Positions 26,845 to 37,331 of a stretch of 64,000 bases of DNA are shown piece after piece (positions within the stretch are counted from its first letter, which is position 1; each line of letters begins with the position of its first letter). Origin of the DNA: an uncultured delta proteobacterium. Lineage in GTDB: Bacteria > Desulfobacterota > Desulfobacteria > Desulfobacterales > UBA2156. The position numbers and the translations under genes were made by a program. Under the pieces are notes generated by a model that was not told where the DNA came from, ran no database searches, and was given only the letters and a program-made list of their open reading frames with translations. The stretch covers positions 96,001 through 160,000 of the forward strand of contig CAVTQK010000024.1 of the NCBI GenBank assembly GCA_963736855.1. The letters are read 5' to 3'.

Positions 26845-27606
26845 TCATTTTTTCTGTTTGAAATCCGGATAGAGTTTCTTGAAGCACTCCGGACAGACGC
26901 TGTGGCTGAACGACAGCTCGGAGTGGGCCTCCAGATAGTTTTCGATCTGATTCCAGTACCCTTTGTCGTCCCTGATTTTTTTGCATGAGGCGCATATAGG
27001 GAGCATGCCTTGAAGTGTCTTAACATTCGACAGAGCCTCTTGAAGACTTGCAACCAGCTGATCACGCTCTTCTTCCGCTTTCATTTCCTTGGTGACAACC
27101 GTCAACATTCCCAGGGACAATGAGATATGGTCATAGGGATAAGTTTCGATGACTGCCTGATCCTTCAGCCAGATGGGATTCCCGGTCTTTGGAAGCACCT
27201 TGTAAACCGCCTCGATGGCTCCGGTTTTCAGGGTAGTCTTTCTCAACTTGTCCCGAATTCCTTCCAAGTGGCTGAGAGTTAGAACCTCTTTATGAATGCT
27301 TTCTGATTCCGTGTATCGGTAGGTACGGTGGTCTATGATATGCGTTTTGAAAGTATCGGCCAGCTCGGTAAAAGAGCACTCCATCAACTCCATGAAGCGT
27401 TTTGCGGCATATTCATACCAGATGTCTTTTTTCTTTTCTTTCCAGGCGGCGATATACGGGATGGCCGGTGTTCCCGTCTCTTCGAACAAGGTGAAAATAT
27501 CGATGTATTGCGCTACGCGGTCTTTGAGATCACGGCTGAAGTCTCCGGTCAGGATCTTCCCTAAATATTTATTTAAAGAGGGGGCCTCGTCGCTGGTTCC
27601 GTTCAT
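26845..27606 (-). CDS. Putative sensory protein (PAS-like region + C-terminal Cys/His motif)
   Basis: IWLKDQA...GMLTVVT PAC-like segment, coiled coil, LPICASCKKIRDDKGYW...FSHSVCPEC. Confidence 0.7.
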   Translation of the reverse strand: MNGTSDEAPSLNKYLGKILTGDFSRDLKDRVAQYIDIFTLFEETGTPAIPYIAAWKEKKKDIWYEYAAKRFMELMECSFTELADTFKTHIIDHRTYRYTESESIHKEVLTLSHLEGIRDKLRKTTLKTGAIEAVYKVLPKTGNPIWLKDQAVIETYPYDHISLSLGMLTVVTKEMKAEEERDQLVASLQEALSNVKTLQGMLPICASCKKIRDDKGYWNQIENYLEAHSELSFSHSVCPECFKKLYPDFKQKK

Positions 27607-30007: not shown

Positions 30008-30930
30008 AACCGGAAGAACAAAAGCGGACAATGGTCGGCATTGCCAGCCTTGTGGGGGCCTTCCTGATCTGGGGCACCAGCCCTATCTATTTCAAGTGGC
30101 TCAAAGTGGTCCCTCCCTTTGAAATCCTGATGCACCGAATGATCTGGTCATTTGTGTTTCTGATGCCTTTGGTCCTTCTCTTAGGTCAATGGCGTGAATT
30201 TCTGTATGCTTTAAAAAATCGTTTCACTCTTGGAATCCTTTTAGGAACGACCCTTTTGGTTTCTGTGAATTGGTTTTTGTTTATCTGGGCCATCAACAAC
30301 GATCAGATTCTGCAGACGAGCTTGGGGTATTACATCAATCCGCTCGTCAATGTCCTTTTAGGAAGGATTTTTTTAAAAGAAAGGCTCAGATCGGCACAGA
30401 GGGCAGCGGTTATCTTGGCCGCTTTGGGGGTCGGATATTTGACGGTTCAATTCGGACAGGTCCCTTGGATTTCTTTAGCCCTGGCTTTGACTTTCGGCTT
30501 TTACGGACTGATCCGCAAGGTGGCGCCTGTGGGGGCACTGGTGGGACTGACTCTGGAGACGCTTTTAATGTGCGGCCCTGCTCTGACATATCTTTTTTAT
30601 ATAAATACCAATGGCGGCGGCGCCTTTTTCAGAACAGGAACTCGAATTGATTTGCTTCTTATGGCCGCCGCCCTGGTGACGGCCTTTCCCCTTCTTCTTT
30701 TCACCGAAGGGGCGAGGCGGATCCACTTTTCCACGGTGGGGATCCTGCAGTACCTGGCGCCGAGCTGCACCTTTATCCTTGCGGTCTTCATTTACGGAGA
30801 GCCGTTTTCAGTGGCGAAGTTGTGGACGTTTATCCTGATCTGGATCGCTTTGATCATCTATTCCACCGATTCGATCCTGAATTTCCGCAAGCACGGATTC
30901 GAACCCCGGCAAAGTCCACAAAAAAGATAG
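30004..30930 (+). CDS. rarD: EamA/DMT transporter RarD
   Basis: NWFLFIWAINN, SLGYYINPLVNV, FGFYGLIRK, GILQYLAP. Confidence 0.93.
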   Translation: MKPEEQKRTMVGIASLVGAFLIWGTSPIYFKWLKVVPPFEILMHRMIWSFVFLMPLVLLLGQWREFLYALKNRFTLGILLGTTLLVSVNWFLFIWAINNDQILQTSLGYYINPLVNVLLGRIFLKERLRSAQRAAVILAALGVGYLTVQFGQVPWISLALALTFGFYGLIRKVAPVGALVGLTLETLLMCGPALTYLFYINTNGGGAFFRTGTRIDLLLMAAALVTAFPLLLFTEGARRIHFSTVGILQYLAPSCTFILAVFIYGEPFSVAKLWTFILIWIALIIYSTDSILNFRKHGFEPRQSPQKR

Positions 30931-30934
30931 GGTG

Positions 30935-32845
30935 TCACATTACGACGGCATTGATAAAAAGATGCACGAGGATAGCGGCGGCATACCCCAGAGCGATCAC
31001 TGGAGTCCAAATGAGGTGAGAGCCGAAGGTATAAATGCCTCTCGCTGTCCCTAAAAGACCCACACCGGCGGCGGATCCGATGGCAAGTAAACTGCCACCT
31101 GTTCCTGTAGTCAGAGTGATCAGAAGCCATTGCCCCGTGGACATGGAAGGATCCATGGTCAAGACGGCGTACATTACCGGGATATTGTCCACCACGGCTG
31201 AAAGCAATCCCACGAGGATATTGGCAATGGTGGGACCCAAGCCCGTGTACATGAGGTTGGAAATCAGGCTAAGATAGCCGAATTCGGCCAAACCCCCCAC
31301 GCATAAGATTACGCCGTAGAAAAACAGCAGGGTATCCCACTCGGCGCGGGCGATCCGTTTCATCAGGTCGAAATGCTCCGCCATCTTTTTTTGCTCGGTG
31401 CAATCCTGAATGATCTCGATGGCGCCGATGACTTGGCCTTTTCCATCTTTGACGGGTGCGGCGGTGAACCCGAGCCATTTCCCGTCTTTTCCGAGGGTCG
31501 GGAAGAAGTCCGCGGCATCATAGGCTTCTTCGGCCAGGGGGCTGATGCGGTGCTTGCCCTCATAAAATTTGCCGATCTGGACCTCGGGCATACTGTCCAG
31601 AACCAGGTCCGCCAGGGCAGGGCGTTTGCTCTTGTAAAAAGGGGACCACGTCAGATTCGTCCCGGCCCGTTCGGAAGCCGAAACACCCGTCAATTCCTCC
31701 ATCCCCTTATTCCATACGGTGATCTTGTGATCCCGGCCGATCATAAATGCCGGCATGGGGATTTTTTCGATGACTTGGCCCACATCTTCCCCGTATTTCC
31801 GCAAAAGGCGCAAAGGGTTTAGACTTTCGTCGGGTCGGGCTCCCAGGATGGGGTCATAGCGATAAAGGCGGCCTTCCTGTTGTTTGACGTGGTGGCTTAA
31901 AACCCCTAAAAATCCGAGTCCCAGCATCATTCCTGCTGCAGGGGGGAGATGCAGGAAGTGATGAAAACAGACTGCCGTGGCGATAGTCAGGATAAAGAGC
32001 CCCATCATCAATTTTGCTCCGTACTTCATCTGAATGTGCTCGTTTAAGGGATGGGGCTTGTCTTTTCCAACCGCAAAATTCATGGCCAAAGCCGGTATAA
32101 ACCAGTTGATCAGGGAGGGTACGAAGACCAGGAAGAATTCTGAGAACTGGACCTTTCCCTTTTGCCATACCATCAACGTCGTGATGTCCCCGAATGGGGA
32201 GAAGGCGCCGCCGGCATTGGCCGCCACCACGATGCTGATGCAGGAAAGGCTGACGAAGCGATGGTTATCCCCGCCTACCGCCATGACCACCGCACCCATT
32301 AAAAGCGCTGTGGTGAGGTTATCCGCGAAAGGTGAAATAAAAAAGGCCAACAACCCCGTGATCCAGAATATCAGGCGCAGGGAAAATCCCCGGGAGACCA
32401 AAAAGGCGCGCAGGAACTGGAAGACGTTTCGTTCTTCCAGGGAGTTGATATAGGTCATGGCCGCAAGGATGAACAGGAACAGTTCTGCATACTCGAGGAG
32501 GCTCGCGCGGATGGCTGTTCCGGCGGCATGAAGATTTCCGGCCCGAGTGTATGCGATGGCCACGAGAACCCAGATTAGGCCTGCGGACATGAGGACCGGG
32601 ATGCTCTTTCTCAAGTGCAGTTTGTTTTCCAGTGGGACAAAAGAATAGGCAAAAACAAAGAGCGCTAAGGAAAGATAACCCCAATAGGTTCGTGACAACT
32701 CCAACGTTGAGGATCCGCCGGAGCTCCCGCTGCTTGCCCACACTACCGTCGTCGTGATCAAGAGTATGGCCGCAAACAGGAGTCGTTTGCTGCATAAGCG
32801 CTTCAAAAACGTCATCAATTTTCTTTCAATAGTGGGTCCCTCCAT
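30935..32845 (-). CDS. nhaD: Na+/H+ antiporter NhaD with internal PAS domain
   Basis: LRKSIP, EYAELFLF..AMTY, ADNLTTAL, ANAGGAFSPFGDITT, EWDTLLFF, DNIP, GGSLLAIGSAAGV; PAS insert between helices. Confidence 0.9.
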   Translation of the reverse strand: MEGPTIERKLMTFLKRLCSKRLLFAAILLITTTVVWASSGSSGGSSTLELSRTYWGYLSLALFVFAYSFVPLENKLHLRKSIPVLMSAGLIWVLVAIAYTRAGNLHAAGTAIRASLLEYAELFLFILAAMTYINSLEERNVFQFLRAFLVSRGFSLRLIFWITGLLAFFISPFADNLTTALLMGAVVMAVGGDNHRFVSLSCISIVVAANAGGAFSPFGDITTLMVWQKGKVQFSEFFLVFVPSLINWFIPALAMNFAVGKDKPHPLNEHIQMKYGAKLMMGLFILTIATAVCFHHFLHLPPAAGMMLGLGFLGVLSHHVKQQEGRLYRYDPILGARPDESLNPLRLLRKYGEDVGQVIEKIPMPAFMIGRDHKITVWNKGMEELTGVSASERAGTNLTWSPFYKSKRPALADLVLDSMPEVQIGKFYEGKHRISPLAEEAYDAADFFPTLGKDGKWLGFTAAPVKDGKGQVIGAIEIIQDCTEQKKMAEHFDLMKRIARAEWDTLLFFYGVILCVGGLAEFGYLSLISNLMYTGLGPTIANILVGLLSAVVDNIPVMYAVLTMDPSMSTGQWLLITLTTGTGGSLLAIGSAAGVGLLGTARGIYTFGSHLIWTPVIALGYAAAILVHLFINAVVM

Positions 32846-32980
32846 GCTTCAGAAGCCGCGAAAGTCCCGGTTACGAAAAAATAGGTCCCGGGGCATTCGT
32901 TTCACTCCTGAACCCTTTGAATCCTTGGACTCTGCATATTTCATTTTGACCAAAATCTCATTTTTTTCAAGTAACAAATC

Positions 32981-33174
32981 TTGATGAAACCCTAATAAGG
33001 CCGATTTTTCTCGCGCCGCAAGTCTTTTCGGAAGATCCAAAGGGTTTCGCTAAATCTCAAGAACTCGGCACAAGTGCCTCAAACAGCTTGAGATTTTTAA
33101 CGCTCAACCCTTTGCCTCTCTTTTTCCGAAAAGACTTGAATGGCGCTCACAAAACCTTTTTACGAAGCCATCAA
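32981..33174. repeat. 194-bp REPIN/MITE-like element, family B copy 1
   Basis: Same termini as family A; long internal inverted repeat; reverse-complement match to 34696-34889. Confidence 0.9.
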
Positions 33175-33269
33175 TCTTGGCTTAGAAGGAATCTTGAAGA
33201 GTTCACCCTGTTGTTGCAAAAGCCGTATTTTTTCTATACCTTATCATGTTTTTTATGCAACTGCAGCGT

Positions 33270-34115
33270 TCACTCAAACCGAGCCAAAAACGATTCCGGT
33301 ATCAGGCGGATCCAGTCATAGAGCCGGCCCTTGAGAATGAAAAGGCGGGGGGCTTCCGGAAAGTCGAAGAGCCGATAGAGGCGATACGAATCCGGGTTGG
33401 CGGCTGAAAATGCAAGTTCGGCCGCCGAGAGGGAAAAGGGGAAACGCATACCGCATGATGTGGTTTTAACCTTGATGAAAATGGGCTTTTCATTGTATTC
33501 GTAAGAGAGGATGTCATAGGGTGAAACCGATGCCCGTTTTACGGAGATTTGCTCTATGCGATCGGCCATCCGGAGACTCACTTCCTCCCGAAGTCTTGCC
33601 CTTTCAAGATCCAGAACAAACCCTTTTCCGGCCTCTTTCAGGTCGGAATTGTTCGCTTCTGCAGTGGCGAAGGTGTATTTCTTCATGGTTTTTCTAAGGA
33701 GACGTTCCTTATTACCGGATCCGGGGGGATGAGACTCAGGGGGATCCACGATGGTGGCACGGAAAAAGAGATCTCGCTGAACCGGTGCCAGCAGGGATCT
33801 TTCGGCATAAGCCATCAGGATGTCGACAATTTCGGTGTGTTTTCCCAGGTGTGAGTCGATCTGCTCGATCAGGAGCATTTGATAATTATCCAGGGGTTTA
33901 TAACCCCTGATGTATGGCAGATTTAGGGCCAGAAGAGCGGCGCTGATGGTCTGATATTTTTTTTGGACGGCTCCGGCATTGCGTGGGGTCAATTTTTCGA
34001 CGAGCCGGTTTCGGTGATCCATTTTGCTGTAAGGTTCCCCTTTAAGTTCCCTGCAGAGCATAATAAAGTAATCCGCCACGATGGCTTCTACTTCTTCCTT
34101 GCTCCAGGGATTCAT
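33270..34115 (-). CDS. DUF3883 (No-vein C-terminal-like, PD-(D/E)xK fold) domain protein
   Basis: N-terminal W..EE....VADY..ML, GYKP..NYQ; C-terminal YDILS, VKTT, F..S..E, Y.LYRLF.F. Confidence 0.75.
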   Translation of the reverse strand: MNPWSKEEVEAIVADYFIMLCRELKGEPYSKMDHRNRLVEKLTPRNAGAVQKKYQTISAALLALNLPYIRGYKPLDNYQMLLIEQIDSHLGKHTEIVDILMAYAERSLLAPVQRDLFFRATIVDPPESHPPGSGNKERLLRKTMKKYTFATAEANNSDLKEAGKGFVLDLERARLREEVSLRMADRIEQISVKRASVSPYDILSYEYNEKPIFIKVKTTSCGMRFPFSLSAAELAFSAANPDSYRLYRLFDFPEAPRLFILKGRLYDWIRLIPESFLARFE

Positions 34116-34919: not shown

Positions 34920-37331
34920 TCAAGCCGTGCCTTTTTGGGAAACATGTTTTTGGATGCACAGCCATGCCGACAGATAGGACACCGCTGCAAAGAGCAGGTT
35001 TGTCGATATTCCGAAACCGATGGCAATTTGAACGGCGGCAACAGCGGTTAATACCGATGCACACCCGTTGGCCGCCCAGGCAAAGGCTCGTTGTTGAGGG
35101 CCGTCCAAAAGGATGCGCATCCCCATGGGAAACGGAAGGCCTGCCGGAAGACCCATCGGCAAAAGGAGTATAAGGGCGAAGACCGTGCGAGAGGTTTTGG
35201 GAAGTCTTAACGCCTGGTGAATCCCCGAATCCAGCATCCAATAACTGACAGCCGCTAGAATTGTCAGTGCCAAAAGGGATTTTTGCATCGCACCTTTTCG
35301 CAGATTCTGGGATATCCCGCCCCCTGCGCCCGAAAAAATAAGGATCCCGGCTATCCCGGCGACGAAGCTGACTACCGGATCTCCTAGAAGCAGGGTGAAA
35401 GCCTGAATGAAATACATTTCCAGAAACATGAACCCCATACCCACGAAAAAAAAGAAGAGGAAATTTGGAAGGAGATGATTATCGCCTCGCCGAAAAATTG
35501 AAGAAAGCGGGAGCAATAGGAAAAGGATACTGATAGCCGCCGCTTCGATCAGAACGACCCAAACGACGATTTCCCCGGACATGAAGAGGGAGTAAAAGCG
35601 GCTTCCGGTGCTCCGGTATAGGGTCCGGATCCGGTCGTACTTGATGAATCTGTCCGGAAAAGGACGTTCATCCGTACAGGGTTTGACATCAATGAGGTAG
35701 TCATTAAAGAAGGTTTCCGGTTTGTCCTTTTCATAGGCATCGGATAGCTCGGAAAGAGCGCGGTGGTAGTAAGGCTCCGGAAACCGATTAAACCGGTTCA
35801 CAGGGTGAGCAATCGATATCTTGCTGAAAACAAAATCGAAATTGAGTCGATTTGCGAAATCGATCAGAGGCGCCGGGTCAGGCAGTGCCGACCTGGAAGC
35901 GATCAGGACGAAAGTATCCCAGTTTCTGAGGATGAGGATATGGCGACCCGGATCCGAGACGCCCTTTTGGACGAGGCACTTGTAAGCGGTGGACCACAGC
36001 CGGAGCGAGTCTGCCGGTGGAAGACGAAGCTTCCTGGAAACGATCAAAATGCCTCGATGCGAAAGACGATTCAGATATGCCGCAAAAGCATCCAGCGTCA
36101 GGAGATAGTCCTGGGTCAGGGCACCGGTTCCGGGAAGGGAGGGACCCCAGTTTTCTACATGGATGACGTCGAATGTCGGTCCGGGGGCTGCCAGAAACGC
36201 CCTGGGCGCGTCGGAAACGACGGTGATCCGATAATGTTCTTGGGTCAGTTGTGCCAGGAAAGGGTGGGGTTCCACCACCGTGATGCTTTCGGCTCCCGAT
36301 GCCAGGGCACAGGGGATTGCGGTGCCGCCTCCAGGCTGAATAATCAGAACCCCTCCGGGGTTAGGTATCAGCACATATCCGGCATACTGAAGGGTAAACC
36401 GGGCAAAAGCCTTGTTCGTGTTTGTTTCGTAGAAGGTTAAAGGATGGTCGCCATCCTTGAAGGCCGCCCACTGGGCCGGAGGTGTTGATGGATACTTCAA
36501 GCTCAATCCCGGCGCATACCTGAGGTGAGGGCTTTGCAGACAATCCACCCGGCCGTAAATGCTGGAGGCCTTCTGAAAAACCTGGGAGTCCGGAAACTGG
36601 AGGGACTGACTCAAAGCCTTGTAAGGGGAAGGGCGGATCTGCAGCAGGGCGTTGGTGCCTGAAAAAAGAAAAACAGCGAAAACGCAAAGAATCCCAACGG
36701 CAGTGAGCATGGCCAAGGAAACGCCTTTAGTTTGGGAAAAGAAGGGCTTATGAAAAAAATCTTGGAGAAGGCTTTTCAGACCATCGCCTGCCGCGGGAAT
36801 TAAAGGGATCAGGGCGGATAGGGCCGCAGCCCCCGTTTCACCGAATAGAGAGAGAAGCGGGATCGAAGCGGCGGCGCCGCACGCCGATCCAGCCATGCTG
36901 GCAAAATACAAGATTCCGCTTTTTTCAGGACAGGCGGCATATCCGATCATGATGGCCAGGCCGCAAAAGAAAAAGGCAACACCCAGCACCAGGTAAAGGA
37001 TGAAAAGGTAAAGGATCTGTCTGGGTTCGAAGGGGAGCCTGAAATAATCAAAAGGAATCCGGCTTAAGATGAAAAGCGAAAAGAGGATGCTGATCGAAAA
37101 AGCAAAGGCAAGGAGGTCCAGATGAATTCCTGCCGACCACTTCCTTTCCCAACCGGGCATGCGACCGTCCAAAAGGGAGAACAGGACGCCTCCGGCTGAA
37201 AAACCGAGAAGGGCGATGCTGATCACCATGAAAGACAGATGGTTCCACTGGCTTATGGAAAAAAGGCGTGTCAGGAAAATTTCAAAGGCCAGTGAGGAAA
37301 AGGAAAGAAAAAATACGGTCCACAGGATCAT
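34920..37331 (-). CDS. Large membrane protein with central spermidine synthase-like/SAM-methyltransferase domain
   Basis: N-terminal TM bundle (LAFEI.LTRLFS), VLIIQPGGG, ITVVE, DAPR, FDVI, PCTDERPF, C-terminal TM bundle (GFMFLE, W.ANG..SV). Confidence 0.78.
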   Translation of the reverse strand: MILWTVFFLSFSSLAFEIFLTRLFSISQWNHLSFMVISIALLGFSAGGVLFSLLDGRMPGWERKWSAGIHLDLLAFAFSISILFSLFILSRIPFDYFRLPFEPRQILYLFILYLVLGVAFFFCGLAIMIGYAACPEKSGILYFASMAGSACGAAASIPLLSLFGETGAAALSALIPLIPAAGDGLKSLLQDFFHKPFFSQTKGVSLAMLTAVGILCVFAVFLFSGTNALLQIRPSPYKALSQSLQFPDSQVFQKASSIYGRVDCLQSPHLRYAPGLSLKYPSTPPAQWAAFKDGDHPLTFYETNTNKAFARFTLQYAGYVLIPNPGGVLIIQPGGGTAIPCALASGAESITVVEPHPFLAQLTQEHYRITVVSDAPRAFLAAPGPTFDVIHVENWGPSLPGTGALTQDYLLTLDAFAAYLNRLSHRGILIVSRKLRLPPADSLRLWSTAYKCLVQKGVSDPGRHILILRNWDTFVLIASRSALPDPAPLIDFANRLNFDFVFSKISIAHPVNRFNRFPEPYYHRALSELSDAYEKDKPETFFNDYLIDVKPCTDERPFPDRFIKYDRIRTLYRSTGSRFYSLFMSGEIVVWVVLIEAAAISILFLLLPLSSIFRRGDNHLLPNFLFFFFVGMGFMFLEMYFIQAFTLLLGDPVVSFVAGIAGILIFSGAGGGISQNLRKGAMQKSLLALTILAAVSYWMLDSGIHQALRLPKTSRTVFALILLLPMGLPAGLPFPMGMRILLDGPQQRAFAWAANGCASVLTAVAAVQIAIGFGISTNLLFAAVSYLSAWLCIQKHVSQKGTA

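Follow-up and report, generated by a model that had tools for sequence, protein, structure and literature searches.

What does it mean that a gene for a predicted sodium/proton antiporter carries a sensory domain within its own reading frame? This question is raised by positions 30935-32845 of a 64,000-nucleotide stretch of DNA, hereafter the window, from an uncultured delta proteobacterium of the Desulfobacterales (contig CAVTQK010000024.1, positions 96,001 to 160,000). Here, our analysis revealed that the gene product, P0001 or NhaD-PAS, is an NhaD-type transporter with a complete PAS domain spliced into its predicted cytoplasmic side, and that this architecture is real. Transport by P0001 and its control by the PAS domain are predicted, with the Na+(Li+)/H+ specificity assigned from a sequence profile.

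The gene forms a single uninterrupted frame on the minus strand that encodes 636 amino acids (aa) with zero internal stops; since most homologues measure 614-626 aa, a second ATG at 32815 may be the real start. The NCBIfam profile NF038006 (NhaD_1) matched P0001 with 550.8 bits (cut-off 80), split into two stretches that in the genome search covered profile positions 1-246 and 275-405, either half being above the cut-off by itself. Pfam CitMHS also scored above its cut-off, and TIGR00775 reached 399, below its cut-off of 577. A preliminary description of the locus had proposed a complete NhaD motif set in an intact frame, interrupted by about 160 residues that include a PAS domain. All the motifs that it named were found in the translation, and the interruption is present, but the spacing from ...LSHH to FDLM... 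is 171 residues. Within the insert, residues 360-486 matched Pfam PAS_4 (28.8 bits, cut-off 23.1), and PAS membership was further supported by TIGR00229 (25.5, cut-off 22.9) and by Atlas feature matches of 0.95-0.96. The module is made up of an N-terminal helix, a five-stranded PAS core with an extra helix, and the beginning of a C-terminal helix. The loop between transmembrane helices 8 and 9 (TM8 and TM9), in which this module resides, is 182 aa long in P0001, compared with 32-42 aa in close PAS-less relatives (118 measurable of 120) and 23-55 aa in more distant PAS-less NhaD proteins (n = 66). From these lengths, the net insertion is estimated at about 147 aa, at approximately 31382-31816 of the window.

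The junctions, which the preliminary description had marked for checking, are no assembly artefact. A loop of 181-185 aa was found in all of the best 120 matches (the query included; the other 119 are 61-85% identical to it), and 115 of these 120 carried a precomputed PAS Pfam match. Gap-free contigs from two studies crossed both junctions, with contig X1 covering 30700-33009 with 59 differing letters and contig X2 covering 30943-32780 with 68; no joint bypassing the insert was seen among the contig alignments listed. Third codon positions held 31 of the 38 in-gene contig differences (from the 40 of 79 differences listed), including 7 of the 8 listed inside the PAS domain. The GC content across the gene was 49-58% in 300-base windows, with no abrupt step at the insert. 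An assembly chimera between nhaD and a kinase gene, for which a PAS domain of 47% identity elsewhere in the genome might speak, is refuted by these two independent contigs and by the same junctions in 119 further homologues and in two complete chromosomes (L027 and L038).

A search of GTDB genomes yielded at least 602 confirmed NhaD matches, 79 loci of which were kept for analysis; 13 of the 79 carried the PAS domain and, together with four from a search of relatives, gave 17 fused loci. The insert-free cores of these 17 loci formed one clade in a 46-sequence tree (SH-aLRT/UFBoot support 97.3/100), with support of 91.9/84 after the columns around the diagnostic sites and the junctions had been dropped. 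The sister clade consisted of PAS-less NhaD proteins, mostly from Desulfobulbia and Desulfuromonadia records. The NhaD-borne PAS domains also formed one clade (support 0.993; 52 dereplicated domains, set beside about 98 that belong to signalling proteins), and its two extra members were fragments of NhaD-PAS. Both trees indicate that NhaD-PAS has a single insertion origin. The loop of the sister clade retains the YD-x-x-LG motif and the FD...AEWD helix, and the additional ~147 aa were therefore added between them.

The PAS subfamily of the insert was found in tandem in histidine kinases, GGDEF proteins and LuxR proteins (for example L002, P0121, P0140 and P0170), and, by sequence comparison, this tandem subfamily is the likely donor. 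Its domains share with the insert a best-match identity of 43-50% and about 25 conserved positions, including the extra helix. In the signalling proteins, however, the domains stand in tandem and have an enzymatic or DNA-binding output, whereas in NhaD the PAS is present in one copy and its C-terminal helix continues into a transmembrane helix. The genome studied here itself encodes a 1076-aa frame with kinase motifs (G000:C21 644600-645560; L002 and L003) in which two PAS domains of the donor subfamily stand in tandem, sharing 47% and 43% identity with the NhaD PAS. This subfamily, marked by the extra helix and conserved R, D, Y and E, accounts for at least seven matched stretches in kinase P0121. 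No ligand data for the donor subfamily were found in the literature searched. The presence of the fusion in Neptuniibacter suggests a transfer between phyla.

Candidates for a natural deletion of the domain did not hold up: two 471-aa members of a 617-aa cluster, at first sight precise losses of the insert, are N-terminally truncated and retain the PAS, and L034, which has an HFDFM junction like that of the fused clade, carries glutamate as residue 74 and falls among the PAS-less sisters in the tree, so that a loss is not demonstrated there. A search for other domains in the same loop was equally unproductive, as nine longer NhaD representatives (from 150 listed) matched only the CitMHS family in Pfam. 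Of the NhaD representatives, P0142 and P0146 are enlarged by long insertions right behind the first hairpin motif and P0125 has a soluble C-terminal extension, in each case with no Pfam match beyond CitMHS.

Apart from the insert, the residues associated with ion binding in NhaD are conserved. In the passages of PMC9408914 consulted here, the ion-site residues of HhNhaD1 are given as S162, D166, N167, G204, S401, D405, N406, G436 and G442, mutation of which reduces or abolishes function, and E64, E65, R454 and R464 are proposed to form a cytoplasmic pH sensor. We mapped these residues onto P0001 by the offsets between them as given in that review, and not by the HhNhaD1 sequence. Each of the nine offsets recurred without deviation in P0001, as it did in 62-66 of the 66 PAS-less proteins; among the fused proteins, S171, D175, G213, S549, D553, N554, G584 and G590 were present in 120/120 and N176 in 119/120. 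These alignments indicate that the NhaD ion sites are intact in the fused clade.

By the same offsets, the proposed pH sensor appears incomplete in P0001. The equivalents of E64 and R454 are kept as E73 and R602, and the R464 equivalent is K or R in 118/120 fused proteins but I612 in P0001 (31010-31012). At the E65 equivalent, 117/120 fused proteins have N74 (D, E and H occur once each), whereas this position is acidic (E/D) in all PAS-less proteins of both sets compared (66/66 and 120/120). Similarly, P71 was found in 120/120 fused proteins and in 0/66 and 0/120 PAS-less proteins, which have I, M or V. In the 17 genome loci, position 74 was occupied by N in 15 and by A in one, and position 71 by P in 14 and by T in two; each of the two positions was missing in one locus. 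Further clade-wide changes are N115 to S and F495 to M. As single-branch events in non-independent kin, these changes are no more than suggestive of a link to the PAS domain. A lost salt-bridge partner at R279 was rejected, as this residue is invariant in 120 close sisters but present in only 27/66 broader PAS-less proteins.

The full-length AlphaFold2 model of P0001 had a predicted local distance difference test score (pLDDT) of 82.5 and a predicted template-modelling score (pTM) of 0.73. Its Foldseek matches were IT-fold carriers (Pho90, INDY, NaS1 and ArsB) and PAS domains, with a template-modelling score to the target of up to 0.67. The isolated PAS model (pLDDT 89) gave a best Z of 10.7 and root-mean-square deviations of 2.5-3.1 over 93-101 residues, and nearly all of the 50 listed entries have the PAS fold, so that the insert both scores and folds as the PAS domain described initially. 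The top matches, CitA PASc, ThkA, VqmA and a Geobacter kinase PAS, were tied at Z 10.0-10.7 with at most 22% identity, and the fold therefore gives no ligand. By sequence, the solved relatives were limited to weak matches to phytochrome B PAS (E of at least 0.039).

According to the passages of PMC9971032 consulted here, the SiaM fold has 12 segments, with TM1-3 and TM7-9 forming the scaffold and two hairpins entering from the cytoplasm (HPin) and from the periplasm (HPout). The model helices of P0001 fit this plan, with the insert predicted between TM8 and TM9a, which by analogy would both be scaffold helices. Loops 73-82, 136-155, 258-278 and 599-613 are rich in K/R, and loop 298-302 has none; from this alternation, and from the related SiaM/VcINDY topology, the insert is inferred to be cytoplasmic, hence a PAS rather than a Cache domain. 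In the model, residues 483-522 form one helix running from the PAS into TM9a. In support of a fixed connection, the distance from D481 to E502 is 21 residues in 120/120 fused proteins, with no indel, and the segment E477-E502 is free of indels in 17/17 genome loci, while the N-side linker of the PAS varies by at most three residues. By contrast, the loop of the PAS-less sisters occurs in seven different lengths across 118 more closely related proteins.

The ratio of nonsynonymous to synonymous substitution rates (dN/dS) of the PAS domain was 0.03-0.13 in 5/5 pairs, next to 0.04-0.10 for the core in the four computable pairs; dS was near saturation in two pairs, and in two the core value is inflated by a frameshifted tail. 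These ratios indicate that the PAS is under purifying selection. The insert has about 25 positions in common, at 75% or more, with a set of 100 dereplicated PAS domains taken mostly from signalling proteins; these positions include W378, N379, F403, Y404, R408, D413, Y428, W457, E477 and D481. R408, D413 and E477 show 88-98% conservation in the NhaD PAS and 91-99% in the signalling PAS, while positions 358, 368, 435, 461, 478 and 489, conserved in the signalling set, are relaxed in NhaD. This is consistent with a domain that kept its interior while its outer surface changed, the shared residues presumably facing inward; by the strand register of LOV domains, E477 in particular would be predicted to face the pocket.

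The signal suggested initially was a small molecule or a redox cue, and the latter part was not borne out. In the passages of PMC10468136 (Xing et al.) consulted here, the haem, FAD, FMN and photoactive yellow protein (PYP) clusters of PAS domains are marked by His, Trp, Cys and Cys/Tyr/Glu, respectively. With PAS elements such as F-alpha assigned from the secondary structure of the model, we found no His in the F-alpha segment 408-417, whereas haem PAS domains of the FixL/DosP and Aer2 clusters have an invariant His on F-alpha or E-eta, no Trp in 405-430, as in the FAD-type NifL/Aer (the conserved W400 precedes F-alpha), no Cys conserved above 24/120, as in the FMN-type LOV domains, and no conserved Cys of the PYP type. 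Position 399 is Q in 79/120, H in 30/120 and T in P0001, and His373 and His377 are conserved in the first beta hairpin. Since the haem, flavin and PYP residues are not conserved, a redox or gas signal is not supported.

Taken together, we somewhat favour the reading that P0001 is an NhaD-family Na+(Li+)/H+ antiporter allosterically regulated by a ligand of its PAS domain. An IT-fold, elevator-type antiporter would once have acquired an entire PAS module that had belonged to a signalling protein, and this module would now serve as a built-in cytoplasmic regulator. It may bind a small ligand or ion other than haem, flavin or p-coumarate, probably via the residues shared with its kinase-borne relatives (R408, D413, Y428, W457 and E477). 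As TM8 and TM9a would belong to the fixed scaffold, the PAS would not pull the moving domain; more likely, it would act on the cytoplasmic latch between scaffold and transport domain, either by docking or via the fixed helix that leads into TM9a. This latch is the site of the proposed NhaD pH sensor, where the clade lost one glutamate, and the ligand state could thus set the readiness of the elevator to cycle, partly replacing pH control. As a guess as to the direction of control, the PAS could be a brake that the signal releases. A stronger version, in which a ligand-binding PAS replaces the carrier's own pH sensor, a kinase-style helix signals into the elevator scaffold and the ligand is common to an orphan PAS subfamily, is put forward tentatively and is in our view rather doubtful. 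The structural half of the sensor-gated transporter proposed in the preliminary description thus stands (PAS fold, cytoplasmic placement, conservation, fixed helix and retained ion sites), while its functional half is a prediction.

Several observations weigh against allosteric regulation by a PAS ligand. Pairs of PAS domains are on average 47% identical, versus 78% for the core, and purifying selection proves only the need to fold. No known PAS cofactor motif is present in the NhaD PAS, and none of its top structural matches stands out, several of them being PAS domains that are not known to bind a ligand. P0001 has private changes at conserved sites, namely I612 for K/R and V377 (31715-31717) for a residue that is H in 107/120. 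The P71/N74 pair represents one event on one branch and may have arisen in the founder with no connection to the insert, and the pH sensor was mapped by offsets from a review and not by the HhNhaD1 sequence. Loop 229-235, expected to be periplasmic, has about two basic residues and is thus an exception to the charge rule. The gene is also patchy, occurring in 3/40 relatives and in 1/5 of the same genus, and was found in 0/200 genomes of a phylum-wide sample, in which nine had a PAS-less NhaD and at most six candidates per genome were scored. Some copies are frameshifted (G003 and L031). No neighbouring gene is common to more than 3/17 fused loci, four of which were compared with only 1.5-kb flanks, and the context gives no hint of a signal.

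The alternative that fares best, unlikely in our estimate but to be taken seriously, is that the PAS is free of ligand and serves as a structural module that keeps the NhaD dimer stable or oriented, or provides a docking site for a regulatory protein, with control exerted via assembly or a partner. The missing cofactor motif would be expected for such a module, and the best structural matches include the CitA cytoplasmic PAS and ThkA, which are relay or dimer domains. In addition, TM8 and TM9a would be scaffold helices, the IT-fold carriers recovered in the fold search are dimers, and the fixed helical linker fits a coiled coil at the two-fold axis equally well as signalling. Allosteric regulation by a ligand is instead favoured by the contrast between R408, D413 and E477, which are kept, and the six positions of the signalling set, which are relaxed.

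A transceptor-like arrangement, in which the NhaD PAS pairs with a histidine-kinase PAS of the same subfamily and reports the transport state or the reverse, is improbable. The tandem PAS domains of the kinase-like protein in the same genome and the frequency of the subfamily in kinases, cyclases and LuxR proteins would provide the partners; however, kinase- or regulator-like clusters lie near only 2/17 fused loci and also near two PAS-less loci, with no conserved kinase neighbour, many relatives have such kinase PAS domains but no fused NhaD, and a weak search found no NhaD of 1114-3180 aa. It is slightly harder to credit that the clade carries another cation or an anion that the PAS senses for feedback control. 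The functional assignment comes from a profile only, carriers with the IT fold also transport carboxylates, sulfate, phosphate and arsenite, and in one source the protein of D. toluolica is listed as a predicted symporter of divalent anions, but both hairpin aspartates and the other checked ion-site residues are the same as in PAS-less NhaD, and the core is 72% identical to that of the PAS-less sister clade. Least credible, and disfavoured, is a passenger without a role, tolerated in a permissive loop: the length tolerance of this loop in PAS-less NhaD (23-55 aa) and the faster divergence of the PAS would allow it, but it is contradicted by the low dN/dS, by the finding of a truncated insert in 0/120 matches and 0/17 loci, by a P71/N74 mark present in no PAS-less protein among 66 + 120, and by invariant PAS residues that persist at ~47% mean identity.

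The NhaD-PAS family is small and patchy. Its hosts are mostly sulfate reducers plus Neptuniibacter: the named hosts of the fused loci include Desulfofustis glycolicus DSM 9705, Desulfobacterium, metagenome-assembled genomes of Desulfobacteraceae and Desulfuromonadales, and two complete Neptuniibacter chromosomes, and protein cluster records extend the list to Desulfobacula phenolica, D. toluolica DSM 7467 (WP_014956628.1), Desulfobacter and Desulfosarcina. Among the 150 NhaD representatives listed, the fused family makes up one full-length cluster at 50% identity plus fragments, and the fused proteins are named in databases either as NhaD or as PAS proteins. In a genome of the same genus (G003 C6, C8 and C11; L007), several NhaD-PAS copies or fragments have frameshifts or stops, and the L031 copy has a frameshifted tail, in both cases from decay or sequencing error. 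Two NhaD-PAS copies with identical scores lie in inverted, divergent orientation at G017:C105 2644-4497 and 5630-7483 (L009), possibly an assembly duplication, and tandem NhaD or IT-family permease genes were seen in the PAS-less loci L032 (6013-9405), L043, L044, L047 and L011.

P0001 is the only NhaD found in its genome by profile search; the same genome has three matches to the CPA family, and NhaA, NhaC and MnhE gave no match with the profiles used. The gene is convergent with an EamA permease gene ending at 30930, and upstream of it, in the same orientation, is a NOV_C gene. No riboswitch was matched by Rfam near the gene in 13 fused loci (a single tRNA only), promoter and terminator counts were at chance level, and RNA run X14 contributed two 151-nt pieces in the N-terminal core, too little to indicate transcription. 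Runs with a small share of matching sequence were uninformative as to habitat. An interspersed repeat of ~200 bp (window 32977-33179), situated upstream of the nhaD-PAS start, has ~44 BLAST matches in the genome, with copies 66-96% identical among the 40 listed, and is multi-copy also in the aligned contigs. It has weak inverted self-similarity and resembles a miniature inverted-repeat transposable element (MITE) or a repetitive extragenic palindrome (REP); it had no Rfam match. A second repeat of 43 bp (window 33228-33270, ~26 genome matches) ends at the NOV_C gene stop. Elsewhere in the window, two minus-strand frames had no Pfam match at E 0.01: a 253-aa open reading frame at 26845-27606 with a Cys-rich C-x2-C...C-x2-C end, and an 803-aa membrane protein at 34920-37331 that overlaps the stop of a PCMT methyltransferase gene.

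Table 1. Features of the nhaD-PAS gene and its product in the window (residue offsets are those derived from the passages of PMC9408914 consulted; model-based boundaries are predictions).
Feature	Residues of P0001	Window positions	Strand	Basis
NhaD-PAS gene (P0001)		30935..32845	-	Open reading frame, profile matches, homologue lengths
Signal-peptide-like N-terminus (basic stretch, hydrophobic helix, VWA end)	11-37	32735..32815	-	Sequence, hydropathy, model helix; cleavage putative
N-terminal NhaD core (TM1-3, arm, HPin, TM5-8)	53-324	31874..32689	-	NF038006 first stretch, model, IT/DASS fold
VPLEN at cytoplasmic end of TM1, with clade-specific P71 and N74	70-74	32624..32638	-	Alignments; residue-offset mapping
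HPin ion site S171-x3-D175-N176, equivalent to HhNhaD1 Na1 site S162, D166, N167		32318..32335	-	Conservation, offsets
Native TM8-TM9 loop remnant with YD-x-x-LG; insertion point after it	325-343	31817..31873	-	Motif common with PAS-less sister clade
Inserted PAS module	344-488	31382..31816	-	Profiles, model, subfamily comparison
Linker helix, one helix with TM9a in the model	483-501	31343..31399	-	Model; alignment spacing
C-terminal NhaD core (TM9a, arm, HPout, TM11, TM12)	502-636	30938..31342	-	NF038006 second stretch, model
HPout ion site S549-x3-D553-N554, equivalent to HhNhaD1 Na2 site S401, D405, N406		31184..31201	-	120/120 each; offsets

The regulation of elevator-type IT carriers after their synthesis is barely known, and no tested PAS-controlled secondary carrier was found in the literature searched. 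The PAS-less sisters, 72% identical in the core, constitute a natural experiment in which the insert is cleanly swappable, and cultured hosts (Desulfobacula toluolica DSM 7467, D. phenolica, Desulfofustis glycolicus DSM 9705 and Neptuniibacter) as well as standard NhaD assays exist. If the PAS controls transport, NhaD-PAS could readily be used to report on the ligand that an orphan PAS subfamily binds, and ligand-switched transporters could be built on its pattern; and if the PAS took over from the pH sensor, a simple antiport assay would reveal the signal for a whole subfamily that is abundant in the kinases and cyclases of sulfate reducers.

Among known systems, the canonical NhaD antiporters (TC 2.A.62; Vibrio NhaD, Halomonas NhaD1 and NhaD2), as covered by the passages of PMC9408914, belong to the closest, sharing with P0001 the NF038006 family, an IT/VcINDY-like fold, both hairpin S-x3-D-N sites, the glycines reported to be essential in HhNhaD1 and the equivalents of E64 and R454. 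Unlike them, P0001 has the ~147-aa insert with a PAS domain in the TM8-TM9 loop, an Asn at the E65 equivalent and a Pro three residues before, and its antiport activity is a prediction. No paper on an NhaD with a PAS domain was found in the literature searched, which left most subscription papers outside its scope, and the text and supplement PDF of the PAS survey PMC10468136 do not mention transporter, antiporter, NhaD or CitMHS, its domain-composition archive S1-S8 lying outside that scope. A search of PMC5942162 by terms likewise brought up nothing of relevance. The initial remark that no comparable example is known holds to this extent for NhaD, but it must be qualified for other carriers, as passages of PMC10710835 note MFS transporters fused to PAS domains, typically at their C-terminal end, and contain no experimental example of a PAS-controlled carrier. 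Like P0001, these MFS-PAS proteins are secondary carriers with a fused PAS of proposed regulatory function; they differ in fold and in the usually C-terminal position of the PAS, which in P0001 is inserted between two predicted scaffold helices. For these fusions, that review cites two papers by Willson et al. (2019).

Ligand binding by a PAS domain also changes activity in the KCNH (EAG/ERG) potassium channels, where the PAS modulates the channel according to passages of PMC10468136. KCNH thus exemplifies a PAS that modulates an ion-moving membrane protein, as proposed for P0001, but its members are channels and not coupled carriers, are eukaryotic and have an N-terminal PAS of the LOV-related cluster. 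As far as the literature searched extends, the NhaD-PAS architecture is uncharacterised, while the theme of a regulatory domain on a transporter is already established, which limits the surprise. Soluble regulatory modules occur on the same membrane fold in yeast Pho90, the top fold match, which has an SPX domain, and in DASS/CitMHS permeases with TrkA-C or CBS modules; these are anion symporters with other domains and other points of attachment. Cation/proton antiporters with ligand-binding domains are known in KefC/KefB (RCK, glutathione), CpaA and KhtTU (cyclic di-AMP) and SLC9C1 (cyclic nucleotide). In contrast to P0001, which is not a member of this group, these have the CPA fold, terminal or separate sensor domains and known ligands; nevertheless, as systems in which a cytoplasmic sensor domain directly controls exchange, they provide the most likely working analogy for NhaD-PAS.

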